Both the position numbers and the translations under genes were made by a program. Positions 29,336 to 64,000 of a stretch of DNA of 64,000 nt are shown in pieces. A model generated the notes under the pieces. It had not been told where the DNA came from. It searched no databases and was given only the letters and a program-made list of their open reading frames with translations. Source of the DNA: Phoronis australis (Eukaryota; Animalia; Phoronida); assembly GCA_002633005.1 (NCBI GenBank), contig NMRA01000363.1, forward strand, positions 308,935-372,934, read 5' to 3'. How positions within the stretch are numbered: position 1 is the first letter of the stretch; every line of letters starts with the position of its first letter.

Positions 29336-29502
29336 TACTCTTCCGTCCAAAGCATGGGGTCCGTTGGATAGCACATCGTCCACACAACTTGGCTCTCGAT
29401 ATTTGACAAAGCCAAAACCTCTGGATTTTCCAGTCATGCTATTGTTCATGACAACGCAGTCAATCACCTCGCCATACTTTTGGAAATAGTTGAGAAGACT
29501 TT
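29336..29502 (-). CDS. DAZAP1: DAZAP1-like exon 3 (RRM1 core)
   Basis: ESLLNYFQKYGEVIDCVVMNNSMTGKSRGFGFVKYREPSCVDDVLSNGPHALDGRV|gtaagt. Confidence 0.96.
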
Positions 29503-43895: not shown

Positions 43896-44058
43896 TACCG
43901 TAATCGTTCGGGTTAACGCCCATGCTCAGTTAACCGCCCATCCCCGACTTTAAGTGGATTTTCGATTTAACCGCCCACTGCTCGGTTAACCGCCCTCCCC
44001 CGATTTTTTGGATTCACCAATTTAACCGCCCAGGGCGTTAACCCGAACGATTACGGTA
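43896..44058. mobile_element. About 160-bp MITE, internal-deletion derivative of the family at 3220-5631
   Basis: TA|CCGTAATCGTTCGGGTTAACGCCC ... GGGCGTTAACCCGAACGATTACGG|TA; perfect 24-bp TIR and TA duplication. Confidence 0.88.
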
Positions 44059-44969
44059 ATTTGTGAATGACATGCTGCCGGGCAACAAACTGGTTCCCAA
44101 GGCAGATCTTTTGGTTCAAGTCCCCTGCTCTGTACATTAAGTTCTCCTCGTGGCTGTCTACTAGTAAGTCAGATGCCCCTTTCCAGCTGCGATCCTGTGA
44201 AACTAAACGGGCACCAAATTCAAAGTATTGTTCCAAGACTCCCCGGCAAAGTTTTTTATGTCAGCTCTCTATGATGGCACCCCTTGAGAGGGGAAGATTT
44301 AAAAAGATTCCGAATATTAATACAAAGTATGTATGTGGTACCCTTTTATGGAGAGTTTTCTGATATGGGAGGACCTTTAGTTCTAGATGTCTCTATTTTT
44401 GCCACATTTTTAACTACTAGTCGGGGATATTCCTAGACTGCGCCTTTGCACCATTATCATGTAAAAAAGTAAAAAGGCGCAAGTACATTGCAGCATTGCA
44501 ACACTGTTCCAAAAATGCAAGATTTTTGTCAACTTACTGTCAGTCAGGTAAAACATGACTCTTCTTATTTTGATTGACCTTGGGGTGTCTGTTTTATATT
44601 AAATACCACTTCAATTACACTAAGTCTGCTGGGCACAACTTTTTGAAAAAAGGCACGCTTTTTATCATCAAGTGTTCAAACCTGGTCAGTAATATTCCCG
44701 ACTTATTTCTGTGATGATTCTTTACTTACGGTATATCACTCAAAACCAATAGCCAAAACTGCCATGTCTCAAGGGCTGGTGCCTTTTCACATCTACACAT
44801 GCAGTACAAACCAGTAGACTAGAAATTGCTTGATATTTATTTTCGTGGAGAAATTTGATGATTGAGAGATAGAATTTCACTTGTCAACCACATTGTGTGC
44901 TAAGTAAGTGATGAATTAAGATTGACTGTGTGAATCATTGGATAGTTAGCCTTCTGAATGTCATTTCAG

Positions 44970-45257
44970 ATCAAGAAAATAGAGTTTAATCCAGGCTGTA
45001 ACATCAGCTTTTGTCAGAATGCGTCGTCCAATGGTAGTCACGTCAACGTGATTCACGTGGAAGCACGGGGTCCCAGGGACAGTCTCCATTATATAGCCAG
45101 CACAGTAGTGACCCCTGTGGTCATTATAGCAAGGACTGTGGGGGAAGGTGCCAAGCTGGTGGTAGATTGGAACAGGTTGCTGAATGGTTCCAATGTGGCA
45201 GATTGTGTACGACTGGATCAAAAGGTGTCATACAGTGAGGCCATGGTGATTACAAGA
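44970..45257 (+). CDS. GLMP: GLMP exon 2
   Basis: tttcag|IKKIEFNPGC...VNVIHVEARGPRDSLHYI...LVVDWNRLL...ITR|gtaagt; the 'NPGC...HV.A.G....LHY' pattern is typical of NCU-G1. Confidence 0.92.
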
Positions 45258-45931
45258 GTAAGTTTGGAGTCAATTGTGACAAGGGAAGTGGAGGACGTGG
45301 TAATGTTACTACCAAATGCTATTGCTTGTGTGCATTATTCGTCATTTTTAGGTGATGGAGGACCTTATAAGTCTTTGAAATTTACTTCTGTAAGAGTATG
45401 TGTTTTCTGAAAGTTGAAAGCTTAGTATAAAATTTGATTTTTGACTTGATACCAATCTGCCATTGACTGGGTCTAGAGATCGTGTCTTTTTAGTAAAATA
45501 TGACAAAAAAGAAACGTACATTTATTGTACAGCAGCAATATCATCAACACTGACTTAATTTAGTTTGATACGAAGTCTCAAAAATGCTGTTTTGTGTTTC
45601 TAATTGATCATTTTGTTTTATTCAGATTTGTAGGGAGTTGTTTAATTAAAATCATGGAAGTGATGATCACTTATGGCATAATGTATCTAATCCCATTGCA
45701 AGAGCACAGCTAAACTATTGTAGTTGTCAGTGTGAGTCATCCAGTAAGTTTTTGTAAGATTTCAGACCGAATTGTTACACATGTGTATTAGCAGAATTAA
45801 AGTGTCCTAGCTCTGGTTTGACTAATATGGTAAAGGGGTCTATTGTTTACATTTCTTTTGAAAACTGTCAAATACATTTATCCTTGATTTTCAGGTTCAA
45901 ACTTGAATTGCAGCTCACTTTTCATTTTCAG

Positions 45932-46129
45932 ATGATAGAGTTCAATGACACTGGGGACAAAGCCAATTTGACAGCATCCAATTTGACATTGTCACACCCC
46001 CTGGGTGATTTCAACTGGGCAAAGGCAGAGTTATTTTCCAATGACACCGCCCATCTTATTGTGTTCAATGCCACTTGGAAGCTCAACACAGACAAGTTTA
46101 AGGCAAAGAACGGATCGTTAAATATAAAA
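45932..46129 (+). CDS. GLMP: GLMP exon 3
   Basis: tttcag|MIEFNDTGDKANLT...NGSLNIK|gtgagt; many N-glycosylation sequons. Confidence 0.92.
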
Positions 46130-46925
46130 GTGAGTTCTTTATTGGATGGCGGGACTTAGGTCATCGCTGACCACTGCTGCAGGAAAAACTGCTCTGGTAA
46201 TGAATTTGGCTTCTGCTCAGCACTCGTGACGAGGAATTTCGGACCACTTTTTCTGAATACTTTTGGATTGTACTGTTAATCTGTAAGCCTATGCTTATAA
46301 TCTTACTTATGTCGTATCAATTTATCTCCACGATGTAACCAGGTGCGGCATTTTCACATGCAAAAAGCACTACATTATTGTGTAATATCAGACTTCAAAA
46401 TTAATAATAAGCGACCATTTCTGCCTTTGATAACTTCATTTTGCTTCCTTTGTCATAAATTTCCCCTTTGCTAAATTAGTTTTGAGTGGTCTCACGAAAT
46501 GTTATGATCGTTTCCATGTTGTTTGGCAATTTCAAGTGAACTGACTTGTGGATGAGAGTGTGTCGCTTCCTGCTGACTGGCATGCAAGTGCTTTACTGCA
46601 GATGGCTCTGTAAACTGTGTCATAAACCCTTGAGTACAACAAACAGGAGTACTGTAAATGTTATAAAGTTTGAGACGCAATATTGTAGGCAAATGAAAAT
46701 TTATTTTGTTGAATTTTCGAACTGAAATAACTAAGAACGTTGAGCATGGTTTGCACAGTGTATCAAAATTACAGTATTTTTTAATATTTAGTTGTAGCAA
46801 GTCTGAGTGGTTAGAAAAATGCTAAGTTTAGCAATTATTTTTGTCTGAAGTTGAAGATTATTTAAATGTCATTAAATGGCAATACTGTATAAATTGTACA
46901 TCTTGTTCACATTTCTCACCGACAG

Positions 46926-47147
46926 GTGAAGGTTTATGGCGACACTGGGAGGCCAGACAAACTACCAAGACTAGCGACCACGCCTAACATGTCGCAGGTG
47001 GAGTTTGAATTAGACAACTTCACCAGCACATGGAATGGTTCACGGTTTGCTCTCGAGATGGTGCTGATGACCAACGACAAGGATGATCCGACCAAATTAG
47101 AGGTGTTGAACTCTATTGATGATGAGCACTCTCCTGGGGTGTTTGAG
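46926..47147 (+). CDS. GLMP: GLMP exon 4
   Basis: VKVYGDTGRPDKLPRL...SRFALE...SIDDEHSPGVFE|gtacgt; SIDDE.(S/T)PGVF is the NCU-G1 hallmark. Confidence 0.96.
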
Positions 47148-48096
47148 GTACGTCACATGGTGTGGCATCCCAAGTCGGATATTAAGTCATCCAGGCTTGA
47201 TATATCATCAACAATGAAACGTTTTGGTGACACTGAAAGTTCTCATGAAAGATTGAGTGGAAATGTCTCACCATATTGGTGTGATTTGCCATTTAGGGCA
47301 TTTGATTAAAAATATCGATGGACATACATTGTACAGTGTATGCAAATTTTTCAAAAGTGGATATGCTTCTGCATAGTATCTGAACTGCTTATTTGGGTAA
47401 CTATGAGGTAGTTGTATTTACATAAGCCATGTCACAGTCAGGTACCACTTTGCAAGTGACCTCTCTGTACTGTTCAACCGGAATCAGTAAAGCTCTTGTG
47501 AAACAATATAGATCCAGTTTGGTCAGAGCGAGTTTGACAATCGTCTTCAGGAGGTTATTGTTTCTGTGCAGGGTATGGTGTAGTCCAAATTGATAGAAAG
47601 TGCTCCCAAAATTTTTATAATACAGTCCTTAGGCTAGTTGTTTCATGTATAATGCAAGATCTATTAAGTGTACATGAGCAAAATGAACACCATTAAAAGG
47701 TGAATGGACATCTGTATAGAAATTTGTTTCACGAGAGCATACCTTTTCTGAAACACTATCTGTTCACTATTTTTGTTACATTTATTTGTTCGGTACAACG
47801 TCATTTTGACATTTTGGATCCAGTCATATAAAATTAATTGCCAAATTAAAAGTGATAATAATTAGGCCAGATTTGCGTAGTGCTGTAAATTACTAATCAC
47901 TTCAAAAGTTACTACTTAAGTAATGACGTACTCAATCTTGTAACCTTCTCAACTTCCCGGGAGCATGCAATGGGTGCAACTGTTGTCTGGGCATCTGATT
48001 AATCCAAACGCATAATTCTGTCAAATTATCGAGTGTAAATTTGGCCCTATCATTAAGTGAGTCGGAAAAAATCTAAAACCTGTAAAATGTTTGAAA

Positions 48097-48318
48097 ATGT
48101 GTTGCTACTATGCATTCCTGTTTCATAATAGTGGTAGATACATAGTCACTTAGTATCTGAGCAAGGCCATGTGTTGCTACTATGCATTCCTGTTTCATAA
48201 TAGTGGTAGATACATATAGTCACTTAATATCTGAGCAAGGCCATGTGTTGCTACTATGCATTCCTGTTTCATAATAGTGGTAGATACATAGTCACTTAAT
48301 ATCTGAGCAAGGCCATGT
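48097..48318. repeat. Three nearly identical tandem 72-74-bp units in a GLMP intron
   Basis: atgtgttgctactatgcattcctgtttcataatagtggtagatacatagtcactta(g/a)tatctgagcaaggcc x3. Confidence 0.93.
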
Positions 48319-48430
48319 TTCTCACCATGAATTACTCACACTTGACCAGGCTTATTGAATGCTCTTCTCACTTAAACAGCAGAATGAATGTCTCTCCCAT
48401 TAGAGTGATGGCAATTGTTTTCCATTTCAG

Positions 48431-48720
48431 ATTGTCAACTGGCGTTTGAATAATATCCAAAAATCGACGTACTCAGGCTACATGCAGTGGAAGCCTGTCT
48501 GTTACTTGAGTCGCGACAGAGGACGCAGTACAGCGACACGCACAAAGCATTACACTCTGACGAACAAGCCTGCCCGTGAGGTGGGTGCTATGGTGCCAGC
48601 GGGGAGTGTTGCGGTTGCATTCTTTGGAGATCAACTGTCTCACATGGTGATGAATGCTACCAATGTGTCGTTTGGATTATCACAGGATAAGTTCTACGTG
48701 GGTCATAACTACACAGTCTG
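48431..48720 (+). CDS. GLMP: GLMP exon 5
   Basis: IVNWRL...GYMQWKPVCY...NVSFGLSQDKFY...NYTVW|gtgagt (conserved QWKPV.Y). Confidence 0.96.
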
Positions 48721-48951
48721 GTGAGTTGCAATGAGTTCACATGCTTTGAAGATTCAACTAAAACAATGATGGCAGATTATTTGAGACGACGCATGACTAC
48801 GAGTAGCTTCTTTTGAAATGGAGAACAGCTTTACTTCAGTTTGTTATTGCTTTAGGTTCATCATGTTAACTGACTCAGCAATAATTTCTATGCACCAAGC
48901 ATAGTCTCACCTAGTAACAAACTTATTTTCAAGTTCACAAGTAAATTCTGT

Positions 48952-48992
48952 GTAGAGTTCAGTAACGCGGTCCTTTCGTTACTGAACTCTAC
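48952..48992. repeat. 16-bp-stem hairpin, joined TIRs of MITE family A
   Basis: gtagagttcagtaacg-cggtccttt-cgttactgaactctac; same terminus as 55078/59503. Confidence 0.75.
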
Positions 48993-49910
48993 CTTGATTT
49001 GTGGTTAAGGTATCCAGTTTGGGACAGCCTCTAACATCTGGGACACTGAAGTTCAAGCACTTGGGCACTTTTGGCCATTGTCACATTTCCCAGATATCAA
49101 ACTCTACGTTTTGTTTCAACAAAGTCTGGGAAAAAAGTGTTGCAATTGCCACCAACACAGCAGAATTCAGAATTTGTATTGTCTCATAATTCTTGAATTT
49201 GGAATGGTCATGATACACATTTTTAAAATTTGGTGCAAGCTCTGACCTAGCTGAATTTTTATGTACCAAACGAGAGAATTTACTGTAAATAAGGCAAGTT
49301 TATTGGACTTTCAATTTGGAATGCTGTAACCTCTCAAAAAATGTCCATTTTGAGACAAAGATTTTTGAAGAAAAAAACATTTCCATATGTTATTAAAGTA
49401 TGCCTGAGCTATTAATGGCCTGTTTTGTTTTAAAACTATTGACTATTGATTTCTAGTAAAATGACCCAAAAGAACTTAGCTGTGCAGTGTAGTACATATA
49501 CGCTTGACAAAATGATGACAGTACTTTGCTAAGTTTGAAGATGATTTGTCTAATATACAGTGCAAATGGGTCTAGTAATTCAGCAGGTTTTTGGGTACCG
49601 GTCCTGAATCTAGAAAATCCCATCAACGTTTCTAGCACTCTTGTTACGATAACCATTTTTTATTAGTTGGTAACTCAAAGGTAAATCAGACGTATCAAAA
49701 AATCTTGAATTTGTTTGTTGGAGCAGTCTCTTTTTCTTAATTTGAATTTCATGCTTGGAAAACTTTGTCTCTTGGTAATTATTGATTAGCAACTTTGAAT
49801 AAGATTAGTGGTCAGTAATCAAGTTATCTTTAGAGAATTCCATCACCAATCACAACGTGTTTTCTTACCAATTGGTTACCAAAGTATACAAAACCCATGA
49901 CCTTTGTGTA

Positions 49911-50132
49911 TAGCAGACATCTTTATTTAAGTGCACTTGAATGTATCTCATTGGCTGCACTTGATTGATTTCGCCGGTTTTGCTTGTTCACCTAGCCAAG
50001 ACGTCTCAATGACCAATTCCAGCTTATAGCCCAATCAAATGTCTTATCTGGACGACTTGACGGAACCGAGGAAGTCAGTCAAGTGCAGCCAGTGAGATAC
50101 ACCCAAGTGCACTTAAATAAAGATGTCTGCTA
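49911..50132. mobile_element. Foldback-like MITE with about 65-bp TIRs
   Basis: tagcagacatctttatttaagtgcacttg...ggctgcacttga / tcaagtgcagcc...caagtgcacttaaataaagatgtctgcta. Confidence 0.8.
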
Positions 50133-50312
50133 CACTGCTAGGGAGGTTACGCTGTCGTATTGTGGAAACTTGAATAATGTACGTCCAATAAACTTGGATG
50201 CATCTTTCATTCATCAGTCGAGTAGTTTTTTTTTGCTTTGTTATTGAAGCTTGATGTGTCTATGGTTGTATACTGGTGGTGTATCTGACGAGGCTTTTTT
50301 ATGTCCCTGTAG

Positions 50313-50481
50313 GTCTGTCTCGCTAGGTTACGGCACCATCCCCGTTGACGGTCTGTCGCTGTTGGTCATCGTCATCATTGTCGCCGGTCTTGGACTTCCA
50401 GTCATACTGATGGTAGTGGGTGGTATATTCCTGGCTCTACGTCGACGGAATGTTAGGTCCCAGTATCAGGCTATACAGTGA
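50313..50481 (+). CDS. GLMP: GLMP terminal exon (TM helix and YxxPhi lysosomal sorting signal)
   Basis: SVSLGYGTIPVDGLSLLVIVIIVAGLGLPVILMVVGGIFLALRRRNVRSQYQAIQ*. Confidence 0.96.
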
Positions 50482-53455
50482 TGTGATTGGATGGCATTTC
50501 TCTGGCTTGTTGCTTGAAGAGCTTATGGCCAAAGGTTGATTTTTTCTCTTTGGGCTTTAGCTTTTAATCTGTTCCCAAGCAGGCTACGGATTTCAAATTA
50601 AATCAGTGTTTGGCCGCAGCAAGATTAAAAACTGGACGATCGCTTCACAAATAAAAAAGTTCAATCAATGTTTCTTCTATCAGGAATTACTGTACATTAA
50701 AGAGTCATTGGCCATTCAGAATCAGCATGCTTCTGATTCTCTGAATAACATGCAGAGCTCAGTGACCCTGCAACTATGGTGATGACCAGCTACTGATTAT
50801 ATTCCCCGTATCTCTCACTTCATTTTATGGATGTTACCTGAGCTGTATGTTGACACTTGCTGTCCTACGGATTTCTATCTTTTAAATTCAAGACGCATAT
50901 GAGACTTTCTAATTTCGTGAAACAGCTTAGGCCATATGGTGATTTTTAGCCAAGAGACTTCAAGCAACAACCCCCTGGTCATAGTGCTACCAATGGCTGG
51001 TATCCGTGATGTCATAGGCAACTCACATTAACCGCCATTTGCAGTACAAGTGTACAAAACACTTTCCGATGCCTCCTTTCCTGGATATTGCTGTTTCTAT
51101 AAATATCAACATTCATTTAGTATGTAATCTATGTGTTTTTCGTCAAATTTTTAATTCCGTTGTTTGTACAGGAAAGCGGTAATGCCAAAGGCTTATTTTC
51201 ACGACATTTTTTCTGAAAAAGCGTAAAATATTTAAAGTAATTTTTGGCTTTTGGCCTCACACAAAATGACGCTCCTTGAGTTTTATACACTTGAGAAAAT
51301 GACATTAGACGTGAATACCCCTCAGGCCATCACATACTGTTGGACTTTTTAGTTGTGAGGTTTTCTTGATAATGTGATTGTAGTAATTCAGATGTCAGTG
51401 GTTCATTTGAATATTTTTAGTACCAAGAATTTCCGAAAAAGTGCTCTGGTTGCTCTTTGCAAACAATGATTTCTTGAAGTCACTTCTTTTGGTTGTCCTG
51501 TTGACGCCACCTGATATCTTTTATCTTTGAAATGTCCTGGTCTTGTATTTGGTACACCTTTTTTACATTTTGTTATGTACTACTCTCTCTCAAACCATTC
51601 AAAGTACACATAAGTGGGTTACAAAGGAAACACTGGATCTCTAAAAAGTTCAGAGAAGAGAGTTAATCAAGTTGGGATACAGTATGAGAGAAAAATTCAC
51701 AACAAAAATGTCGGAAAATTGTACTCATTGGCTTGCCTGAACTGCTCTGTGTATTATTGTCACCAGAGGATGTTCTTATATACAGAGTTCTGTGTAACAA
51801 AAATTCCAAGCATAGGTAGTTTTGCATGAAGTTGGAATAAGAGTTTTGATGTTTTATATTTCACTTGGTACCTACCTCGTACATCATGAGATGTTTCATA
51901 ATGAGAAATTCTAAGAACACATAGTGTGTGACAGCTGGAGGACATGGATGAATGGTTTTCATGTACACCCAGTGCCACTGTGGTCATATTGTATGAATGA
52001 GGTATTTGTGTGTGAGCTTGAGTGAAGGTTTTGATTTGTGCATAGTCTGAGTTATTTATTAAAAAAGCTTTGTGGGTCAGTCAATATTGCCTGGATGTGA
52101 AGTCTAATCTTTGTACATGAAAAGAAAAACAGAAATTTACCAATGGCATGGCATGCTTCAAGTAAAGGTTACAAATTTTTGTTAGAGTTATGCCTGGTGA
52201 TGGTTAGCAATTTTCGAGTATGAGCCGAGTCTTTGGTTCGAAGTATAAACCCACGGCACTGCACTAATTAATCACCTGCTGTAGATGTGTTCAGCACATG
52301 TGGCAAGTGAACGTGTATTATCTCATACATGTTGAATCAGTGAGTACACATGGGCTGAGCACCATAGGGGCTGGGGGCTATAGCCTCCGCTTTTTTCAGT
52401 GCTGTGCCGTCCATTGTCTATGGGCGATGCACCACAGTCGCAGCAGTATACATGTAAATAATACTCAACTTGCAATGAGGTCCCAAACGTAAAATCTGGA
52501 AAAAGGCTGTTAATTTTATGACAGTTCTGTCTCAGCTTTCAATTGCTAAATATATCGTCTGCAACTCAGGCGCCGATTCCTCGATACCTACACTATCAAA
52601 TCTTGTTGTTATTTAACTATTTTCAGGAAATGTTACAAGTTCAGTGCACAGTTACCATTGTTTTCATCTTTGTTATCTCTTTTCAAGTAATAGATCGTTG
52701 CATTCTGAAACTTCAAGGAATTTACCTGTCGGTTTGTGTTCCATTTGATGAATCGACCGATTGCTATTTATGGCCAGTGAGGATCTTACAGTGTACTAAG
52801 ATCTCGGAACTAGGACTCTTTTAAAGACTAGAACGTGAAGCAGTCAGCCGCGTAATCCGGAGTATAAATTAGTAACTTCACTCGAAGCGCGCCATGCCAT
52901 ATGGTAAATTTTTGAGTGAGTTACGAGTACGAATCTGGGAACACGGATTTCAAGTTTAGCGCCGCGTGATTCTCGCAAAATTTAAGTTTACTCGAAATCG
53001 ACTATTGTTGATTTTTAGTTTCTAGTTACGAGGACAGATTAGACACGGATCCCTGGTAAAATAATGCTGTGGCTGGTTGCATGAAACAGTCCCAAACAGG
53101 GACTCAAATAAGGTCCCAAAGCCTTTTGCGTATTTTTGTCTTTACGTACTCACAGATGCAACATTTTTCTATCATTTCATTTTTATTATGAGCTCCTCTT
53201 TGATTAATGATGTTTTGTAATAATTGAACTAAAAACTGAGCTCAGAGTTCATTGAAAATAAATAGGGACTCAGTCCTTCAATTGGGGGTGTTATTTTTGA
53301 ATTTCTGTACAAGGAATGACATTTTTACTCGGTCCAGTTATTGCTTGATAACAAACACATGACGAAATGCAATTATCACCAACACTGGCATACATTAGTA
53401 TACTTTCCTTGAGCAAGGCGGAGGATGTAGTGATTATCTCCCTCAGCGTCGTAGG

Positions 53456-53619
53456 CCTGCCTCCCGTTCAGTAACGCTAGGACCTCGCTAAAAAGCAAGA
53501 CTTCGCGAGATTACGTGAGATATTGCCGTGTATTTTAAATGCGAACACGTGACTTTGACTAGGTTTTAGCTAGGTCCTAGCGTAGGTCCTAGCGTCTACT
53601 GAACGCCGCGCACGCCTGG
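53456..53619 (+). mobile_element. MITE family A, intact copy
   Basis: Inverted ends gttcagta-acgctaggacct / aggtcctagcgtctactgaac; serves as the uninterrupted reference for the split copy at 55078-59503. Confidence 0.75.
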
Positions 53620-54207
53620 TTAAAGTTGTCGCCATTCCAAATTTTTTAAAAAAGATCTTTGCCCAGCTCTTGGGAAACCAAAACTGTGTTAACATGTATA
53701 TTAACGACATGGACTATCTCTCGGAAATTCCTGAAGTTAGAATTTCCCGAATATCCGTGCATTTTGATTTGGGACTCGGATGATGTCCTGATGCAAAATA
53801 CATGTATGTTATGTTTAATAATGAAATAAGAAAAAAACTTTGCTAAAGAAACCACACGTGTTTCTGTTGTTTTTTACGCACACGGCTTGTTTCCTAATTT
53901 GGAATCTTAAAACTTGATAACCGTGATAAGCTACAGAAAGCATCCAAGGGCAAATGATGCTTTCTCAGATTTCAATGTTAATTTTGTTTTGGTGTATAAG
54001 CTTATTCGTTGCTGGATCACTGAAGTGACTGGGAAGTCTTAAGATAACAAAAATTCGTTGAAGGCTATTTCAAAATAAAAAATAGTCGGGCTATAAACAT
54101 ATTTTTGTGTCGGAACATCTGCCTGCCCTCACACATACAGGGCTTCTCGGCCTACTTAGCTGATACAACCGTTCCGCTGAAACTTGTCGCCGTAGTCGGC
54201 AGAATAG

Positions 54208-54813
54208 TATGATGGGCCGTTGGGGGGAAAGTGTCGCCGGAAAAATACGAGCATAATCGTGTACATTACGCCGTTATTTACGCCGTTAATTACGCCGTAC
54301 AATTACGAGCGTAATTTAATTCTTTACGGCGTAAAATTACGCTCGTAATTTAGTTTAAACTCTTAGCCAATGACGTTGGGTTTTACAATCCACGATCGCG
54401 CGCGCTCATGGAAATACTTATTTATTGACGGATTTCATGTCTACGATGCGAGCGCTAAATCATGGCGGATCAAATCGTTGCTGCCATGTCAGCGAATGTG
54501 CAAGAACGAGCTGCCCAGCAACAGTCGTGTATGTTAGGTCATCACTGATTGGTTTAAATTTGGAACGTTCTTAAGGTAGTTTACGAGCGTAATTTACGGC
54601 GACATTTCCCCCATTTAATTTACGGGCGTAATTTTACTGCAACACTTTTGCAATTTAACTTACGCTGCTAATTACGAGCGTAATTTTACGGCGAAACTTT
54701 TCCCCATTTAATGTACGAGCATAATTGTTCGGCGACACTCCTGCAATTTAATTTAAGCTCGTAATTACAAGCGTAATTTTACGGCGACACTTTCCCCTCA
54801 ACGGCCCACCATA
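54208..54813. mobile_element. Non-autonomous TIR element with internal palindromic TTACG-NN-CGTAA repeats
   Basis: About 32-bp TIR tatgatgggccgttggggggaaagtgtcgccg / cggcgacactttcccctcaacggcccaccata; superfamily unresolved. Confidence 0.78.
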
Positions 54814-56094
54814 GAATGGACTGTTTACTTAATAAAGCGGATTTTAACACGTAACGCGAAGAAGCTTAGTCTATCCTTATTGCCAAATGACGGCAGTACT
54901 TTTTATGTGACACCGGACTTTTAAAAACATTTTGATTTGTGCTGGTGAATCAAGAAAATTGCCGCCAATTGTGAATAGCATTGTACTTTATATGAATTTT
55001 AATGAGGCAATGAAACTTTCGCCTTTTGTGATAAAATTCCCTCTAATTTAAGCCAGTTACTCCTTTAAAGTTGCTCTGGGTAGATTTCAATAACACTAGT
55101 ACCTCGCTAAAACGCAAGAGTTCGCGAGATTGCGTGATATAATAGATTTCGCAAAGCGACGTCAACTTGAATTATTACGCACACATAATTCCGGCGCGTC
55201 ATACATGCCATTGTTGGCTGTGACGTAATCCCGTTAGTCTACGCATTTTACGCCAATAAAACGTATTCACGTAGTCGCCATTTTAGTATTCAGCCTATTT
55301 TTAAGTTAAAAAAACAATGCATTTGGGACATAAATATAACGAGGCAAGCAAAAAATCACGCTTTGCGCTGCATTTAAGCGCAGAATGCAACCGAAAAACA
55401 GGCTTATTTTTACAATGGCGACTGCTTGAATGCAGTGTATACAGGGAGATTCGCGTCGTGTTAAACGTAAAACCTGTGGTCCCCTTTTAATTCTTATTTG
55501 GAAAGACGTTGAAACGATTTTTATTTTGATAGGGTTCTCAATCTTTCATCTTTATTTCAGTGTAAAATGAACACGATTGTTCTTAAAGTCTAGCAGAAGA
55601 AAGGGCTTTTTCCAAGGTCCTTATTCTGCCGTCGTTCGCTGGATTTCATCGAACTAGAATGGATTTTTAACAGATATGATTTTGTGTTCATTGTTAACTT
55701 TTTACATACATCTGTTTATTTTAAACTGCAAATAAATTATGTAATATAAGAGGTGCCCATTTTTTCACGAGTTTGTACATATAGAAACAACTTTTTTCAC
55801 ATTCAACATCTATTCCCATTTTGCTTGCCTGTAGTAAAAGTATTAAACGAAACATGTTTCATTGAAGATTTTGTAAAACGTACGTGTACCGATTGTCCAT
55901 GTAAGCAATACAATAATCAAGTCATATGAGATGTAACCGCCTCGCCATTTACTAACCTTACAGCTAAAATGTAGACTTCTAGAAAAAATGAACAACAATT
56001 ACACAGTCAACTGTTTTGGGAAGCTTTTATCCTTTTGTTTTATTGTTTCATTTATTTTTTGTGCTCGTCTTTTACGGCTTCAAAACATGGAAAT

Positions 56095-56750
56095 TGGCTA
56101 AATATTGTTCGAGCCACGGCGGGGATAGGCCAAAAAACCTAGATGTTTGATTTCCATTTTTCAAGTGTGACACTTTGACATAATGGCGCCGACAACATGA
56201 TATTTCGCAACACGCTGGAGGAAAAATTTAAGTTCTTGAAATCGAGAAAGGCGAAGTATTTCAAGATCTTCTGTAACTCCCATTTCACGCACTCCCGAAC
56301 TGATAACATTCTGTGATTGAATTGCTGCTGATCATCGTCCACGCTGGATCTTTTAAATGGACCAGGGCTTAGATTTTTCCTCTTTTAAGGGTATTTCCTC
56401 TTTTTTGGTTTCGATTTCCTCTTATTTGATTTCCATGTTCCTCTTATTTCGTTTTTTTATCATTATTTTTAATTTTTTATGCAAAAACGTTTATTTCAGT
56501 TAAATTTTACAACACAAAAAATATTTCTAACACACAAGCCTATTAATTTGTGGAACGATACATTACGTGAAAAACTTTCCTCTTTTCGTCATTGGCTATT
56601 CCAAGCCCTAATGGACTGACAGGAGACTTTCGCATTGGGTAAGCAGGATTCCCATCAAATGCGAATGCTTGCCCACTTTGGTGTCTTTGTATATTGCCGA
56701 GTTCGTCCAATAACAACCTTTCATTGACGAGAGCGCAATCAGTATTGATG
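56095..56750 (-). pseudogene. Harbinger DDE transposase remnant (C-terminal part)
   Basis: ...AFAFDGNPAYPMRKSPVSP|FKRSSVDDDQQQFNHRMLSVRECVKWELQKILKYFAFLDFKNL, then frameshifted KYHVVGAIMSKCHT...GNQTSRFFGLSPPWLEQYL; matches the 'GD.AYP...PF...FN..MS.VR..VEW.F' pattern; interrupted by a MITE. Confidence 0.8.
56363..56609. mobile_element. hAT-like MITE inserted in the Harbinger transposase
   Basis: aatggac|CAGGGCTT ... AAGCCCT|aatggac; internal TTTCCTCTT repeats; removing it restores the ...SPFKR... frame. Confidence 0.75.
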
Positions 56751-57137
56751 TATCTTATAGGGCACGTGAAGACAGAGCCCGTGCAATGTGCTCAGCATTT
56801 CGAATGGAAAATCCGAAATCCCTGAAAGGATGAGTTTCTAGCTTGATCTTGAACACGAAAAATCATTGTAATAAAAGATAATTATTGTAAAGTGTCCCAG
56901 TGTGCTTGAAATGTAGCAAACCAACATTTTGTTTGCTTCCAGATAGCAAGCGTCCTATTTTATGCTCCGTATTTGCTTGCTACCAATACATTAAAGTACT
57001 GCGTTGTTTGGAACACCCTTTGTAATGTGAAGGTTAGGCACAATCGATTTTAAGCAACAAACAACTTCACTGCAGGTTTAATTTGTTTTAGGACTAATGC
57101 TTATCGAGCACATGGTTCAAGGATTAATTCGTTACAG

Positions 57138-57292
57138 ATCTGGAAATGATGAAGACTATGATGAGCGTAAAGGTTTAGTAACAGAAATAGGCGAGTTGGT
57201 GAAAGAGGCTGACAAAGAATCTGAAAAAGAAAAACTTAAAACAGAAAGTCAATGACAAGATATCAGAAGAATTGCTACGGCTTCATTAGGCA
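57138..57292 (+). pseudogene. Remnant of the second (Myb/SANT-type) Harbinger gene
   Basis: ttacag|SGNDEDYDERKGLVTEIGELVKEADKESEKEKLKTESQ*QDIRRIATASLG resembles the 'SG..E.Y.E...LL.EI......IR..A...LG' segment of such proteins; in-frame stop. Confidence 0.55.
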
Positions 57293-57952
57293 ATAGAGAT
57301 GCAGATTCGTCGAGTAAGCGTATTTAAATTGACATCATTACAAAGCCAGTTTGATTGGGAAACTGGATTTAAGGCTCTTCTCGCTTGCTTTGTTGAGTAA
57401 GATTGCATACTAAATAGGCTATACCTGACCTGAAAGACAACATTCTTCAAAATATGAATACGACTTCCAACATCTTATTCTGCTCGAAAAAAAATTTGTT
57501 TGCAAAACGTGACTTCCTTCTGCGCGATAATCGTATGCTCTGTTTCGGTGCCGCGGTTCCTACTTTTGTTTTGGTGAAGGGTTAACACTATTTTTTCATT
57601 CTTAGCTAGCAATGTCGCTTCCAAAAAACGATGTGCGATCTCAACTTTCTCAAAAAACATGACACAGAGCTGGATATACTAGAGTAAGAGATAAAACTGC
57701 TTCGCAAAATTAACTAAAAATTTGACTAAATTGAATTGACTGATTTGTGTTATTTATTTACCTAAACATCATTCAACAAAGAATGGACTCACCGGAGACA
57801 GCCCAAGAGTTGTTATCTCTGCGGCGAAGGATGTTAAAGTTGAGTCTCCGATGAGTTGCCAGCAGTCACTGGTACGGTGCGCGGCTTTAGACGCTCTGCG
57901 GCTGGGTAAAAGATCTTTTATAGGCCTAACTATCCCCAATTCCCGTACCAGG

Positions 57953-59069
57953 CACAGGCGCTTGGGTTTATCGCAAATGACGTCACTCAATAATATATAT
58001 AAGAAAACATAAAGGTTGGACACTTAAACTTTGCCAAGCCGAGGCTCCCAACTTCAACCGTCCAAAATCCAAATAAAATCTGCGTGCACCTCCCTCAGTC
58101 TGGTGTTGCATAAACCTTCGAAGCCTTATCTTTCCTAGATCCCATTAACTGTATTCGTGAGAGGTGAATTGGCGATGGAATTTCTAAAACAATCTCAAAA
58201 CTCTGAATTCAAGGACCTGAAATAGTAAACATGGCGGATTTCAGTTGTGCTTCAACTTGTACGCCTGTCGTAGGTGAAACTTCGAGTTTGAGCAGGCAAC
58301 CTATATTTCAAATTCAATAATTCTAATCCAAAACTCAACTAATTGAGAATGTTAAAGTTAGTATTTTAATGATTATTTGTAACTTTATTCCACTGACGGC
58401 TCATTTTAGCCCTTAACTTAAAATTTTATTTCATAAACTGGCGTATCTTGTTTCTCATTTTGAAATCACGCACTTTTTTGATTGAAGCACAACACACACT
58501 CGGCCAGGAAACGCAGTCCGTGCAAGTATTACAATGCGCGTGGCCGACGAGTTAACTCAATGGTTTTGGCCAAAAGTAAAACCTTCATAAGAAATCACAG
58601 TACACAAAAAACTTCGCATATCAATACAGTATCAGGATAATTTATATTTGACACAAATATGTGAGTAATTACATTTATTTGGCAATAAAGTGCTCTCTGC
58701 TTCTCATGATCAAGTAGTCGAGGGATTGACGATGAAAGCCGCGCGAAATTAGACTTTCGGATTTAGCTCGGGAGCGTCCGTCAAAAACCCGGATGTGCGA
58801 AGACCGTCTGCCATGACATCACGGAATCACTTCCTTGAATTTGTGATTTTGGCATTCTTTTGGCATTTTTGTCGCCAAATCACCACTCGAAGGCAATTTG
58901 AAGAGATCAAATGAAAGAAGGTATTCTAAGAGTTGTCCGATGCTAGTTTCGTGGAGTTCTATGCACATTTGAGTAGAAAATTCTGAGCAAACAGATTTCG
59001 AGTGTCCAACCTTTATGTTTTCTTATATATTATGAGTGACGTCATTTGCGATAAACCCAAGCGCCTGTG
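57953..59069. mobile_element. Non-autonomous P-element-like transposon (1117 bp)
   Basis: GTACCAGG|CACAGGCGCTTGGGTTTATCGCAAATGACGTCACTCA... about 70-bp TIRs ...CGCCTGTG|GTACCAGG; perfect 8-bp TSD. Confidence 0.85.
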
Positions 59070-60149
59070 GTACCAGGATGAATTTCAAAAATAACTTGAC
59101 TTGGCTGCGTCAGATGTGATATGCGACGTTGATGTTGAAATTGCGCCATATTTTTTATGTTGATTTCCTTTGTTGGTTTATAATTCATATGAGCATGAAA
59201 AGATAAGAAGTTGCATTCGCAGAGTGATTTTTAAGTAGTTTGTAATCTAACGAATATCTACTACGATAACTGGACACCCTGAGCTCAGTTTTTCGGTTTA
59301 CGTTTACTTTCACGTTCACGTAAAAATTTAGCTATTGCAAAACCCATTTTTCTTACTGTAACGTGAATCGGCACGCGCAGTAATATATGCGTGATAATTC
59401 ACGTTCACGTCACTTTACGAAACCCCCATATTGCTGAGTATTTTAAATGAGAACACGCGATTTTGGCTCGATTTTAGCGTCCTAGCGTTATTGAACTCTA
59501 CCCTTGTCTTGATCTTCACTTAAATTGAAAAAGATTTCTAGGCTTGAGACGAACAGGTGGATATTGATTGAGACCATTCCATAGAGTTGGTGGTCACTGC
59601 GGATTAGTTTCAATCAGCAACGCAGAATGACCATCACTAGCCAGGCACTTGGTTAAGACTAGCGTCGAAAAGCCTAGTTATTCAGTTTTGTACCAAAGCT
59701 AGGTCGTCTTCTTCAATGTGATATATATATTTATTGAAGAATGAATAGATCATACAAGGAAAATAATGGCAAATCCTGAAATCGCGAAGCCTTATATCTG
59801 GGCTAGGTCGTCAGGAGAATTATTTGTTTTTATTGTCTGATTTGATTTTAAATTAAAGATAATGACTCGTTGACGTTGATTTGGAATGAAGGTCAAATAC
59901 GGTTGAATAAAAATGTTTTTAGGTGAACACCGGTGCTTTCAACATATTGCCTGAACTAATGCTTTCAACATTTGATGAATAACTGTGCCATGGTATCAGT
60001 ATCTGCGTTCTTATGTTTGACATAACGCGACGTAAGAATGACATGGCGTTGTTTGGTAATCCTACCGCGAACGTGCTCTGAAGGATACGTCTGCAATGCC
60101 AGTGATCATACCGCACGCAGTTTCCAATTTCTATTTGTCGTCTTGTAAC

Positions 60150-60250
60150 TATATAAATCATAAGAATAGAGAATGTATTATTTGAATTTAAATCAACTGG
60201 GTGAGCTATGATGTATTTACCTGAGCTATATTTGTTTTTTACAATTGCAG
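60150..60250 (+). promoter_or_regulatory. Putative TATA box and non-coding first exon of the repeat-protein gene
   Basis: TATATAAA at 60150-60157; strong donor CAG|GTAAG at 60250/60251; acceptor tttttgtag ends at 60618, directly before the ATG. Confidence 0.4.
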
Positions 60251-60618
60251 GTAAGCCTTGTTGAAGTATTAGGGACCTACAGTTTACAATAACCTCCGTG
60301 TTTCGTTAAAAATACGAGTTTTGTAAAAACTCTGACTGGGTACATTCCTATCTACAATTTTTAGTTCATTGACACGTGTGTTAACAATTTAAAGAGCGAG
60401 GTTGCATTTCGTAAATCATTGTTGGACGGAATTAACTTTTTGTCTCTCTTCTTAAACGGTTGTTGGGACGTACCCGTAAAGATGAAGAGGTAGAGGGTCG
60501 ATCAATATAGATTTTTTTTTTATTTCTCTGAACCCTGTGAAACCAGTTGCTCACTCGTCTTAGCAGTTTTCAGGGAGGAAATGTGTGTCTTCCTATCATG
60601 GTTTCCTAATTTTTGTAG

Positions 60619-63600
60619 ATGAATCAAACAGAAGATCAATACAGAACAGATATAGTTGCCTTGGTTTTCGGCTTGTCAGTTGGAATGGCTTTGGTTGGCT
60701 ATATTATTTTGTGCACGTGCCGCCGGGAAAAAAAGTTAGTTTCCTCATCGGCCCAGAGAGAATTCAAGCAGCTGACAACAGCTCTTCTTGAAGCCTTACG
60801 ATCCATTGACATTGAAACCATAGAAAGTGCTCTCAAGTCTTACATCGACTACGGCCAAGCCAATGATGATATTACTCTGGACAAGGACCTTATGAAAGAG
60901 GCAAATGACGCCATAGAGTCTCAGCGTAAGACCGTAGCTGATATTAATCAAGTTCACGAGACATTGAAGAAAGTCCTGGAAGACAGTATCGCTACCAAGC
61001 GAGCGTCAGTGGTGAGAGAAAGTGTTAAACAGTATGAGGAGTTTTCACAAGATTTTAGTGAGAAAGTGGACTGCGACAAACGGTTGCTGGCCGAGGGTAA
61101 GCGATTGGTAGCTAAGGATGACGCGGAGACGTATGTAACTGAGTTGAGGGAGGCGGTGCGCAAGCACAACGTCAACTATATTCAGGAGTCCCTACCAACT
61201 TATGAACGTCTCGTGCTTGAATATAAGGATGTGTTGGAGGTAAACAAAAAGGTAGTTCATGATGCAAAACATGTGCTGAAGGAATTTGAGTCTGTTGTAA
61301 AACACAGTGACATACTGCGACGAGATCTGGAGAAGACGGTCATGGGGAACGACATGGCTCACGTGGAGAAAGTACTGAAAAAGTACACTGACTTTCTGGA
61401 ATCGTGTGGATTTCCGGTCTCACGCGATCAAAATCTTATGAACAAGGCAAACAGTCTCCTTCTGGAAAAAAGGTCTCAAATGGAAGCTCTTGCTTCTGAG
61501 CACACGAGTGCTAAGGGTGCACTCAAAAGTGCCTTGGTGGCCAACAGGCTCACGCAAATATCGATTTCGGTGAAGGCTTATGAACAATTTGTTTGTGATC
61601 ATAGAAATGTTGAGCCCGACAACACGTTGCTAGGCGACGCGAAAAAGCACCTACGCGATATGCAAAGGGAGCAAGTAGCGCTGACGAAAGAACACGATGG
61701 TTTGCGGAGGAAAGTGGAGGTAGCCATAGAGAACAACAATTACACTGCCATAAAAACTGCATTGCAGCATTACGAAGAGTTTTCAGAAAAGCACAAGGAT
61801 CGGTTCAATGCAAATTCAAGTCTGCTGACGATAGCACGAACTATTGTGAGTGAACGCGAGAATGAATTACAAAACGTTGGTAAGAAGCATGACGACTTGA
61901 AGTCTAAGTTAGTCTCTGCGACGTCGTCACGTCGGTTGGTTTCGATGCAAGAAGCCCTGAGTAGCTACGAGTTGTTCGGTAAGGAAAACGCCACGCTTGT
62001 GAACATTGACCAAGGTCTGGTTCGTAAAACGAAGGAGCAAGTAACAAAACTGCAGAAAGATGTCAACCAGGCACGCAGAGATTACGCAGAACTTTACAAG
62101 GCACTGCAAAAGGCCATTTTGTCTCGAGCGAACACGACTATCTTGGAGGCCTTGCACAGATATGAAACGTTCGCACGCCAACATGGTGAGAATATAGATA
62201 TCGACAACGAAATTATTCAGCAAGCAAAGAACATTGTTAAAGAGATGAACGAGCAAGTGCGCTCGAAAATAGAAAAACACAACACTTTGAAGCACGATCT
62301 TGTGGAAGCCACGAAGGAGCGCAACATGAGCCAAATGATAACCTGCCTAGCAAATTATGAAAAGTTTTCAAAGTCAAATACGAAGATCTGTGATCTAGCA
62401 CTTATTAGGCAAACTAAAGACGTCATTAAAAACCGGGAAAATGAAATAGTGCAGCTGAAAAGGAAACATAGTAATCTACGACAAGACCTAAAGACGGCGA
62501 CTGGTGGTCGCAACCGAACTCAGATTGCTCAAAAGCTAGAGATCTACGAAACCTTTGCAGAAGAAAATAGCAACGTCGTTAAAGCAGATGTGCAACTGAC
62601 GGCTGACTCTAAAAGTTTGCTCGAAGAACTGGACATTTTAGCGGCCAAGACCATGGAAGACGCAAACAAATTAAAGGAAGAGTTACTGAAAACAATGACT
62701 TCTGTAAATTTGGATGAAATGAAAAGCGCCTTGTCGAAATACACGGACTTTGTAAAAGCTAATTCGACGTTAATTAGCAAAGATGAAGGGTTGACCAAGC
62801 AAGCCACTGATCTAGTGAAAATGCGAGAACAAGAATGCTTTGAAGTGTATAAACAGCGTGACCGTATTGTGAAGAAACTGGAGACAGCGATTGCTTCACG
62901 TGATGACGCAGCTATTGCAAGCACTCTGGCTGAGTATCAACAGTACGTTCGTGAATATTTCCAAGACATAACTTTGAACAACGACTTAGTGGAACGGTCT
63001 CAGTCAAAGATTAAAGAGATTGCTGACATGAGATCTAATGCCAAGTGTCGTGACGCAGATCTGAAGGAAAAGGTGCGCAGGGCGATGAAGACAGGAAATT
63101 TAGGAGATATGAAATCTGCTGTCGGGGCCTACAAAGAGTTTGCCAGCACTGTATCGGGTGTCGTTGATATTGACGGAAGCTTCACGGAAGAGGCTGACCG
63201 TGAGATAAAGAAGCGAGAAGCTGACATTCAAAAAGCAAAGAACGGGCAGCTTGAGCTTCGCCGTGAGTTGGAAGCCGCTTGTGCCTCTAGAGACAAAGGC
63301 GCTATAGAAAATATACTAAAAAAATACGAAAATTACGTTAAATCTAACGCCGAGAACATTGAACTTGAAACCGATATAATTAATCAATCAAAATCACTCA
63401 TCACTGAAATCGAACAAAAGTGCAATCACGCAAAAGAAGGACTCCTGTTGGCAAAACGAAAAATCGCAGGTGCCATTAAATCGTTTAGACTAGAAGACAT
63501 GAAAACAGCTCTAGAAGCGTATTTAGAATTTACGCGCGTGAACAAGGAATTTGTTGAGCTCGACCAGTTGGTCGTAAAACAGGCGCAAGAGTCAATAGCT

Positions 63601-64000
63601 AAACGAGAAGAAGAACTTAAGGAACTGTCGAAGGAGCAGACGTCCCTTGAAAATCAACTACGGAAATTCATAACAGACCGCAACAGAACTGCCATCGAAG
63701 AGCAGTTGTCTTTGTACGCAGAGTTCACCCGGCAACACTTCAACCAGATTCAGCCTCACAAGGAACTTCTCAACTCGGCAAAAGCAATTGTAGATGAAAT
63801 AGAACAGTCCGAACGTCTGGCGCAGAAGGAGTGCTCCGCGTTGGAGAAAAATTTGGAGGACGCCCTACAGTCTCTTAAATTGGAAGATATGAAGAATGCT
63901 TTGACGAAATACCAGGATTTTATGAAGATAAAATCTTCCGTTGTCGACGTTGATAGCACTTTGGTGAAAAAGGCCGAGCAAGCAATTAAGAAAAGAGAGC
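60619..64000 (+). CDS. Large uncharacterised single-pass membrane protein with at least 17 tandem 65-aa alpha-helical repeats (3' incomplete)
   Basis: Hand translation of frame +1 is open from ATG 60619 to the window end (1127 codons): MNQTEDQYRTDIVALVFGLSVGMALVGYIILCTCRREKK..., then Y-x-x-(F/Y/L) motifs mostly 195 nt apart. Confidence 0.9.
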   Translation, partial: MNQTEDQYRTDIVALVFGLSVGMALVGYIILCTCRREKKLVSSSAQREFKQLTTALLEALRSIDIETIESALKSYIDYGQANDDITLDKDLMKEANDAIESQRKTVADINQVHETLKKVLEDSIATKRASVVRESVKQYEEFSQDFSEKVDCDKRLLAEGKRLVAKDDAETYVTELREAVRKHNVNYIQESLPTYERLVLEYKDVLEVNKKVVHDAKHVLKEFESVVKHSDILRRDLEKTVMGNDMAHVEKVLKKYTDFLESCGFPVSRDQNLMNKANSLLLEKRSQMEALASEHTSAKGALKSALVANRLTQISISVKAYEQFVCDHRNVEPDNTLLGDAKKHLRDMQREQVALTKEHDGLRRKVEVAIENNNYTAIKTALQHYEEFSEKHKDRFNANSSLLTIARTIVSERENELQNVGKKHDDLKSKLVSATSSRRLVSMQEALSSYELFGKENATLVNIDQGLVRKTKEQVTKLQKDVNQARRDYAELYKALQKAILSRANTTILEALHRYETFARQHGENIDIDNEIIQQAKNIVKEMNEQVRSKIEKHNTLKHDLVEATKERNMSQMITCLANYEKFSKSNTKICDLALIRQTKDVIKNRENEIVQLKRKHSNLRQDLKTATGGRNRTQIAQKLEIYETFAEENSNVVKADVQLTADSKSLLEELDILAAKTMEDANKLKEELLKTMTSVNLDEMKSALSKYTDFVKANSTLISKDEGLTKQATDLVKMREQECFEVYKQRDRIVKKLETAIASRDDAAIASTLAEYQQYVREYFQDITLNNDLVERSQSKIKEIADMRSNAKCRDADLKEKVRRAMKTGNLGDMKSAVGAYKEFASTVSGVVDIDGSFTEEADREIKKREADIQKAKNGQLELRRELEAACASRDKGAIENILKKYENYVKSNAENIELETDIINQSKSLITEIEQKCNHAKEGLLLAKRKIAGAIKSFRLEDMKTALEAYLEFTRVNKEFVELDQLVVKQAQESIAKREEELKELSKEQTSLENQLRKFITDRNRTAIEEQLSLYAEFTRQHFNQIQPHKELLNSAKAIVDEIEQSERLAQKECSALEKNLEDALQSLKLEDMKNALTKYQDFMKIKSSVVDVDSTLVKKAEQAIKKRE

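Follow-up and report, generated by a model that had tools for sequence, protein, structure and literature searches.

A transcribed long open reading frame of Phoronis australis encodes tandem 65-residue units predicted to form a membrane-anchored helical rod

A long open frame with a spliced 5' end

The 64,000-nucleotide stretch of the Phoronis australis genome analyzed here (part of contig NMRA01000363.1 and referred to below as the window) ends inside a long open reading frame, which raises the question of whether this frame belongs to a real gene and, if so, what kind of protein that gene encodes. The frame occupies positions 60619 to 63999 of the + strand, comprises 1127 codons without a stop and continues beyond the window end, as had been claimed in an earlier interpretation made from the letters alone (here called the sequence-only reading). 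On the basis of base composition, about 71 stops would be expected in this frame, as opposed to the 0 observed (log10 P of about -32), and the remaining five frames contain 37 to 95 stops each over the same region. The start had originally been placed at 60781; it is located at 60619 instead, and the part omitted by that reading contains the N-terminal anchor described below. Recounting reproduced the remaining numbers: all 17 coordinates given for a Y-x-x-(F/Y/L) motif are in frame and fit the motif, 11 of the 16 intervals between them measure 195 nt, and proline is nearly absent (4 of 1127 residues, with tryptophan at 0 of 1127). No further copy of the open reading frame (ORF) was found within the 64-kb window.

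The gene had also been described as lacking introns, a claim that does not hold, since a 368-nt intron with GT..AG borders (60251 to 60618, + strand) is present upstream of the start codon. This intron is defined by an RNA read joint (60248>60617, cut +2; 15 reads in run X1 and 8 reads in run X2, the shorter side spanning 70 and 74 letters), and no joint inside the ORF was found among the 15 of 22 joints listed. Exon 1 (60175 to 60250, + strand; its 5' end is a lower bound) is noncoding for the long frame and carries an in-frame TGA (60209 to 60211), and exon 2 (60619 to 64000, + strand) starts with the first base of the ATG and is still open at the window end. A TATA-like box (60150 to 60157, + strand), the sole match to TATA[AT]A[AT] within 60001 to 60260, lies 18 to 22 nt 5' of the furthest visible extent of exon 1 and would be the promoter element. 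Additionally, an out-of-frame upstream ORF (60208 to 60791, + strand; 71 codons across the intron, with its stop at 60789 to 60791) begins with two adjacent ATGs (60208 and 60211). Because this upstream ORF overlaps the start codon, efficient translation from 60619 cannot be taken for granted, and a function as translational repressor is possible.

Sense-strand RNA depth over the ORF was 29 to 49x in two of the three raw-read runs (X1 and X2), and the transcript was spliced and strand-specific in both of these runs. The locus represents a genuine animal gene that is both spliced and transcribed. The third run, X3, contained zero reads over 60009 to 64000 and differed from X1 and X2 at several sites in GLMP, a neighboring gene, such that absence and silence of the gene are indistinguishable in X3. 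In the X4 contigs, GLMP was covered and the ORF was not, an observation that is uninformative given the small size of that set. The neighboring genes (RasGEF, RRM and GLMP) are ordinary for animals, and transposon-like inverted repeats are located 1 to 2.7 kb upstream of the gene.

The single long coding exon, the inverted repeats and the missing X3 reads (absent or silent gene alike) might be taken to indicate a dispensable gene, or one acquired from a bacterium, virus or transposon, that is carried by some individuals only, for example, as an immune or symbiosis factor. We regard such an origin as very improbable: the gene has a canonical spliced 5' exon with a TATA-like box and ordinary animal neighbors, and no match was found in viral, metagenome and prokaryote-genome collections (all three reaching close relatives only), in plasmid and phage collections or among viral structures.

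An alternating repeat of about 65 residues

Following the anchor, the protein carries at least 17 units of about 65 aa. Protein self-similarity peaked at offsets of 130 (0.34) and 65 (0.16), compared to a best value of -0.41 at any offset in 30 shuffles, and peaked at 195 as well; an offset of 34 was outside the top 15. Units 1 to 3 (60766 to 61308, + strand) are irregular, with lengths of 64, 56 and 61 aa. Units 4 to 17 (61309 to 63999, + strand) measure 63 to 65 aa, the last being incomplete, are each predicted to form a three-helix bundle and alternate between an A type (even numbers) and a B type (odd numbers). This alternation, which corresponds to a higher-order period of 130 aa (p of about 0.002), had gone unmentioned in the sequence-only reading.

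Mean identity between units is 19 to 28%. The repeat had been called invisible at the DNA level, but a faint signal does exist, with DNA identity reaching 0.34 at an offset of 195 and 0.36 at 390, versus 0.26 to 0.27 at control offsets of 100 and 300. The idea of purifying selection on an old structure fared better, as between-unit identities of 0.37, 0.53 and 0.28 at the three codon positions (expected, 0.28, 0.31 and 0.25) point to constraint at the protein level. Within the unit, hydrophobic residues are nearly invariant at columns 3, 7, 19, 23, 26, 29, 37, 43, 44 and 51, small residues occupy columns 10, 22 and 47, and Cys is not conserved at any column of the units. The A units have Glu at column 53 (7/7) and Arg at column 14 (5/7), and the B units have Asp or Glu at column 18 (4/7) and Arg at column 54 (5/7), with all four Asp/Glu units having the Arg; these counts stem from related units and hence do not represent independent events. 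Such type-specific charge pairs would fit antiparallel packing inside the bundle, stabilized by intramolecular salt bridges.

Predicted fold

AlphaFold modeling of an A/B pair from a 7-row alignment gave a mean pLDDT of 93.1 and a pTM of 0.72 (pLDDT of 89.6 to 93.1 over five models), with helices at residues 2 to 13, 16 to 32, 41 to 78, 81 to 97 and 106 to 129. The pair is thereby predicted to consist of two three-helix bundles sharing one 38-residue helix, and the rod of small bundles joined via shared long helices that had been proposed earlier is indeed seen in this model (pLDDT 93). A unit would be built from the end of a long helix (about 12 to 17 aa), a 17-aa return helix, a loop of 8 aa and the beginning of the 38-aa helix that follows. 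With some 21 long-helix residues at 1.5 Å each, the rise would amount to about 3 nm per unit, and we estimate, from the model, a rod length of roughly 50 nm or more. Only about 5 helix residues would be free between bundles, so that the rod would be fairly stiff. A 325-aa model built from a single sequence was weaker (pLDDT 75.6, pTM 0.36) and merged one unit into a single helix of 64 residues, and the long-range shape of the rod is, for that reason, not established. The earlier statement that spectrin has a different period stands as far as length is concerned (65 aa), but the predicted architecture is spectrin-like and, as such, a variant of a known design.

Fold comparisons were read on a scale on which helical bundles with Z under about 13 represent a common arrangement. 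Several of the matches that align over both bundles are rods of tandem three-helix bundles, and these fall within that range: plectin 5j1g (SR7-8; Z 7.3, rmsd 6.9 Å, 127 aligned), alpha-spectrin 1u5p (R15-16; Z 7.3, rmsd 6.9 Å, 128 aligned) and SbsC 2ra1 (Z 7.3, rmsd 8.5 Å, 130 aligned). Single-bundle matches (TPR-like fragments, ribosomal S20) scored equal to or above these. Foldseek returned nothing significant against the PDB (best E, 0.11 and 0.037 [SbsC, rmsd 13]) or against viral structures (best E, 0.46), and neither did VIA-align (best Z, 10.1 [rmsd 54], 8.1 and 8.6); Ebh, Embp and EzrA were absent among the fold matches listed.

Peptide-binding bundles (MIT, BAG and TPR fragments) match single bundles at Z 7 to 8, and, together with the conserved polar columns specific to A or B, this might suggest a multivalent scaffold, in which each bundle binds a partner and ligands are clustered under the membrane, with no spacing role. 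We consider this quite improbable, however, as identity between the units is low on average and the polar columns would fit salt bridges within the chain.

N-terminal anchor and sidedness

The membrane anchoring suggested by the sequence-only reading is supported by hydropathy. A single hydrophobic segment, aa 12 to 33 (60652 to 60717, + strand), is predicted to be a reverse signal-anchor (N-out, C-in) from hydropathy and flanking charges; in a 19-residue Kyte-Doolittle window, the maximum of 2.46 is found at aa 12, and past aa 40 nothing exceeds 0.81. Three acidic residues and one basic residue precede the segment, and a Cys pair next to the membrane, together with a basic cluster (aa 32 to 39; 60712 to 60735, + strand), provides a positive-inside signal after it. 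Since acidic residues before and basic residues after the anchor argue for N-out, C-in insertion, the rod, judged by flanking charges only, is likely to lie in the cytosol. Palmitoylation of the Cys pair is possible. The protein contains 10 N-glycosylation sequons, compared to 7.2 ± 2.5 expected (p = 0.18; no enrichment), and 9 of the 10 lie within the repeat region, several of them at a helix-capping column.

If the topology were type II, the rod would face outward, forming a cell-surface or lumenal stalk like that of Ebh/Embp, with a role in adhesion, gamete recognition or matrix building. The two-bundle, shared-helix pair of about 126 to 130 aa, as described for the Embp FG repeat in PMC7587433, would be in line with such a stalk, as would the location of the sequons and the all-or-none expression between runs. 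Nevertheless, we consider it unlikely, given that the charge asymmetry of the anchor favors C-in, that the sequons are not enriched and in several cases occupy a helix-capping column, that the units share no conserved Cys column and that Ebh and Embp are absent among the fold matches listed, even if the family is not thereby excluded.

By analogy with known proteins, our preferred explanation, to which we assign about an even chance, is that of a membrane-anchored cytosolic spacer or tether. The anchor would leave the remainder of the protein in the cytosol, where the 17 or more units would stack as a rod, setting a fixed distance between the membrane and a C-terminal part lying beyond the window. 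Where expressed, the protein might act like kinectin, nesprins or EzrA, as a membrane-to-cytoskeleton or membrane-to-membrane link.

Searches for related sequences

A control search with a GLMP exon returned only 1 protein among 53 candidates, which means that search sensitivity for this animal is low. A phmmer search with 520 aa (61705 to 63264) as one sequence against 1.84 billion representatives gave 0 matches at E up to 0.001, a word-indexed search with residues 40 to 1127 left none of 7993 candidates at an E of 0.1 or lower, and a 130-aa profile run against proteins of 229 to 2000 aa matched 0 of 7994 candidates. PDB sequences compared to the protein and both profiles yielded best E values of 0.98, 0.14 and 0.38, and NCBIfam yielded 0 matches. 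Scanning contigs from metagenomes, viruses and prokaryotes for the pattern, an approach that reaches close relatives only, confirmed 0 of 119, 8 and 87 stretches, and tblastn against plasmids and phages found no match. The ESM Atlas provided no usable match for the whole protein and, for four units, one weak lead, a eukaryotic hypothetical-protein cluster at 0.80. With the whole protein, Pfam at E up to 1 (6 families) returned no spectrin, GA, FIVAR or KASH profile; with single units, no family was found in more than 2/17, and spectrin was absent among the 25 listed. The summed whole-protein score for TPR_Slam (PF24575) did exceed its cutoff (56.5 versus 35.2 bits), with one stretch passing, but as this is a sum of weak matches, with 1/17 units matching alone (E 0.009), we do not read it as an assignment to TPR. 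Nothing relevant on such a repeat was found in the literature covered, most subscription journals being outside its scope. The repeat may resemble the helical repeats of invertebrate hillarin-type proteins.

The protein might belong to a described family (shortened spectrin, plakin or nesprin repeats, kinectin-like proteins of the endoplasmic reticulum or a helical repeat of eukaryotes that carries no name) from which it has diverged so far that it escaped searches of such low sensitivity, the exhaustive one of which used a single sequence and no profile, and both the ESM Atlas lead and the TPR_Slam score would be compatible with it. Still, this seems rather unlikely to us in view of the missing spectrin, GA, FIVAR and KASH profiles at E up to 1, the lack of any family in more than 2/17 units, the best E of 0.14 for a profile against PDB sequences and a unit of 65 aa versus the 99 to 122 aa given for spectrin repeats in PMC4243239. 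As for the undescribed family put forward in the sequence-only reading, no convincing family match speaks against it, but the negative searches are weak; neither of the two outcomes named there as counting against the reading, a strong profile match to a described repeat family or known gene or a lack of transcription along with frame disruptions in relatives, appeared.

Tentatively, and at somewhat less than an even chance, we propose an undescribed animal "mini-spectrin" family, independent of spectrin in origin and amplified as an A/B pair converging on Ebh, that forms an anchored rod of at least 50 nm and whose expression is fully on in some tissues or individuals and fully off in others. 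If true, this would be a second, lineage-specific animal route to a spectrin-type tether. An expressed 65-aa unit with a shared helix, an A/B period and an anchor would broaden the known repeat folds and offer a compact module for force spectroscopy and design, and would draw attention to a large gene overlooked by annotation. It opens no long-standing question as yet.

Comparison with known systems

In animals, rods of tandem three-helix bundles are known mainly from the spectrin superfamily, whose repeat is Pfam PF00435. Nesprin/KASH proteins carry a C-terminal membrane helix with a KASH peptide, and EzrA has an N-terminal membrane helix. As in spectrin, the bundles described here are predicted by AlphaFold to be joined by a continuous helix, but there is no Pfam spectrin profile match, Trp is absent, and the A/B alternation, N-terminal membrane anchor and one long coding exon are unlike spectrin and plakins. 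Single bundles overlay TPR fragments (Z 7 to 8), whereas the TPR period is 34, not 65/130, and a 38-residue shared helix is foreign to TPR. According to PMC4243239, spectrin repeats span 99 to 122 aa, a range that units 4 to 16, at 63 to 65 aa, fall well short of, and Trp in helix A is common but not strict.

The same source (PMC4243239) describes EzrA as a cytoplasmic chain of triple-helical bundles that links membrane and cytoskeleton and has no sequence homology to spectrin; this protein of Firmicutes is bacterial and has five repeats of about 100 aa in a semicircle, and the phoronid protein shows no sequence match to it (NCBIfam, Pfam). The 130-aa A/B pair with its shared helix resembles staphylococcal Ebh/Embp (PDB 6GV5 and 2DGJ), in which the Embp FG repeat is reported (PMC7587433) to comprise about 126 aa, with two unlike three-helix bundles and a shared helix, and to form rods. 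These are, however, bacterial cell-surface proteins with a shared helix of about 40 Å, versus 38 residues (about 57 Å) here, and no GA/FIVAR family match was found (Pfam, NCBIfam). Convergence is the likely source of the resemblance. Kinectin, according to PMC11580933, has an N-terminal anchor and, behind it, about 1000 helical residues in the cytosol, with partners at the far end. The arrangement found here, one N-terminal anchor ahead of about 1000 helical residues that are cytosolic as judged from charges, is similar to that of kinectin (KTN1) and p180 (RRBP1), but kinectin forms its rod as a parallel dimeric coiled coil that lacks a 65-aa period, the chain described here is predicted to fold back into bundles, and Pfam and sequence searches gave no kinectin/p180 match. 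In summary, the rod would, according to the model, be a variant of the known spectrin/EzrA/Ebh layout with much smaller bundles, a bit over half the size of those in spectrin.

Transcription and structure of the repeat gene

The long open reading frame (ORF) is a transcribed animal gene. It runs on the + strand from 60619 to the window end and, on translation, stays open for 1127 codons directly downstream of an in-frame TAG at 60616; base composition predicts ~71 stops for this frame, and the remaining five contain 37 to 95. Three raw RNA-read runs (X1 to X3) and a small contig set (X4), which does not extend over the ORF, were mapped to window positions 44001 to 64000. Across five bins spanning 60676 to 64000, depth was 36.5 to 49.1 in X1 and 29.4 to 36.4 in X2, with nearly all ORF reads in the same direction as the mRNA of the neighboring conserved gene GLMP. 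By hand calculation, the X1 level was ~23 reads per kb per million reads, 2 to 3 times that of the GLMP 3' UTR. Since depth is undiminished towards 64000, the transcript continues further. In X3, depth over the ORF was zero, where ~800 reads would be expected at the level of X1, and GLMP was ~4 to 5 times higher than in X1 and X2; since X3 differs in sequence from X1 and X2 at GLMP sites, tissue, condition, and individual are confounded here.

A GT..AG intron (60251 to 60618) was crossed by 15 and 8 spliced reads in X1 and X2, respectively. Exon 1 extends at least back to 60175 to 60179, with a TATA-like box at 60150, and is interrupted by a stop in that frame, which places the protein start at the ATG opening exon 2 (60619). 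Among the joints and indels listed (15 of 22 joints; all but 20 indels), none fell within the ORF. An out-of-frame upstream ORF of 71 codons, with adjacent ATGs in exon 1 (60208/60211), ends at 60791, beyond the main start, and may hinder translation of the long frame. By eye, its 14 exon 1 codons finish with a hydrophobic stretch, and splicing to either of two AG sites, 13 and 16 nt inside exon 2, would fuse it in frame with the long ORF; no junction at these sites was present among the 15 of 22 joints listed.

Neighbors in the window comprise RasGEF-domain exons (5896 to 8246, + strand) and RRM-domain exons (28462 to 29527, - strand), both from a profile scan (80 of 95 listed frames), an LTR-retrotransposon-type element (19288 to 23417, + strand) whose two overlapping frames carry a zinc knuckle, integrase, and RVT_2 reverse transcriptase, and GLMP/NCU-G1 (44970 to 50481, + strand), with four confirmed spliced junctions, a long 3' UTR, and one exon whose single match was a land-snail protein (45% identity). 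Two elements with inverted repeats, at 54208 to 54813 (42 nt at 90%) and 57953 to 59069 (37 nt at 100%), resemble non-autonomous DNA transposons; the latter, lying ~1.1 kb before exon 1, has reads from both strands. A patch at ~55660 to 55680 shows the same run pattern as the repeat gene (sense-strand reads: X1, 21; X2, 17; X3, none). Since almost every read there carries two differences, it may derive from another locus, and none of the 15 of 22 joints listed links it to the repeat gene.

A probably old array of paired units

All 17 Y-x-x-(F/Y/L) positions named in the sequence-only reading lie in frame, and the 195-nt spacing claimed there holds in 11 of 16 intervals, the others measuring 192, 168, 183, 192, and 189 nt. 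Mean BLOSUM62 self-similarity was 0.34 at offset 130, 0.16 at 65, and -0.05 at 195, the highest value at any offset in shuffles (n = 30) being -0.41. A unit profile run against the six frames of the window recovered all 17 units in the ORF, as it must by construction, and no second copy elsewhere (best other E value, 0.79).

Among units 4 to 17, identity was 25.5% within the same parity versus 20.1% between parities (permutation P = 0.0016), running 19, 28, 21, 25, 21, 25, 20, and 23% with increasing distance. One branch of the tree of 17 units groups seven of the nine odd units (86/94, not starred), and the parity label changes 3 times versus 6.0 in shuffles, an equally low count arising in 2 to 4 of 500. 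The array likely grew through duplication of a 130-aa pair, one even-numbered (A) and one odd-numbered (B) unit.

Between-unit identity at codon positions 1, 2, and 3 was 0.37, 0.53, and 0.28 (expected, 0.28, 0.31, and 0.25) and, at four-fold sites (n = 566), 0.29 (expected, 0.26). Silent sites are thus near saturation while second positions are retained, the pattern that old duplications would leave under protein-level constraint. The age and constraint proposed earlier are supported by this measure, which compares units of one protein and is distinct from dN/dS between orthologues. A dispensable or acquired gene seems a very improbable reading.

Predicted fold and possible relatives

An AlphaFold model of an A/B pair, with six other pairs as alignment, reached a pLDDT of 93.1 (pTM, 0.72), with helix limits at 2-13, 16-32, 41-78, 81-97, and 106-129. 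A single-sequence model of five units was less confident (75.6; pTM, 0.36), most units still showing the short-helix/long-helix pattern. The small bundles with shared long helices envisaged from sequence alone agree with the pair model and with the column table, in which hydrophobic residues of the long helix follow a 3-4 pattern; the conserved columns fit three-helix bundles. By these columns, a small residue at column 47 would lie opposite the invariant Tyr (column 26); candidate pairs are Arg14 (5/7) with Glu53 (7/7) in A units and Asp/Glu18 (4/7) with Arg54 (5/7) in B units. The register of the pairs suggests ~5 free residues between bundles and a rise of ~3 nm per unit, and the 17-unit rod would, if straight, measure at least 50 nm. 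By comparison, a spectrin repeat spans ~50 Å (PMC4243239) and the 126-aa Embp FG repeat ~70 Å (PMC7587433).

An exhaustive single-sequence phmmer search with 520 aa of the product gave 0 matches, and word-indexed searches gave 0 of 7993 candidates (whole protein) and 0 of 7994 (A/B pair profile). The repeat matched nothing in PDB sequences, NCBIfam, or viral, metagenome, prokaryote, plasmid, and phage collections, and ESM Atlas gave a single lead (0.80); searches of literature mostly outside subscription journals yielded no relevant publication on such a repeat. Since a control exon (96 aa) from GLMP, a widespread gene, found one protein among 53 candidates, these blanks are weak evidence of novelty. 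The only Pfam score above a cut-off, that of TPR_Slam (56.5 bits, whole protein), comes down to 1 of 17 units when these are scanned singly. Fold searches (Foldseek, VIA-align, and viral structures) gave no significant match; the top rows were single bundles (Z, ~8), and those spanning both bundles included plectin and spectrin tandems and SbsC (Z, 6.7 to 7.6; rmsd, 7 to 10 Å). Since designed repeat proteins and SRP72/68 also appear among the latter, the likeness, as judged from these comparisons, is one of common arrangement, not kinship. A far-diverged member of a described family is an unlikely identity for the product.

Membrane segment and proposed role

The sole hydrophobic segment (residues 12 to 33; score, 2.46; next best, 0.81) has three acidic and one basic side chain among the 11 residues ahead of it and, behind it, one Cys and four basic residues among five; the repeat region begins at ~aa 50. 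Membrane proteins tend to follow the positive-inside rule, by which these charges predict a reverse signal-anchor that leaves the rod on the cytosolic side. An outward-facing stalk would place the rod on the opposite side, where N-glycosylation sequons might matter; they are not enriched (10 versus 7.2 ± 2.5), and we hold this topology to be a lesser possibility. A multivalent scaffold, for which the 17 units could also serve, seems doubtful. We favor, at about even odds, a membrane-anchored cytosolic spacer or tether: the anchor would fix the N terminus at the membrane, and the stacked bundles, if stiff, would hold the unseen C-terminal part at least 50 nm away, as kinectin and EzrA do.

Kinectin carries its partners via a coiled coil (PMC11580933) and EzrA uses larger bundles (PMC4243239). 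The product resembles a spectrin-type rod in build, yet neither unit length nor profile places it in the spectrin family, and its period does not fit TPR. With Ebh/Embp it has the two-bundle pair in common, with no sequence link. We conclude that this is a real orphan gene whose repeat, though of known architecture, is apparently undescribed.
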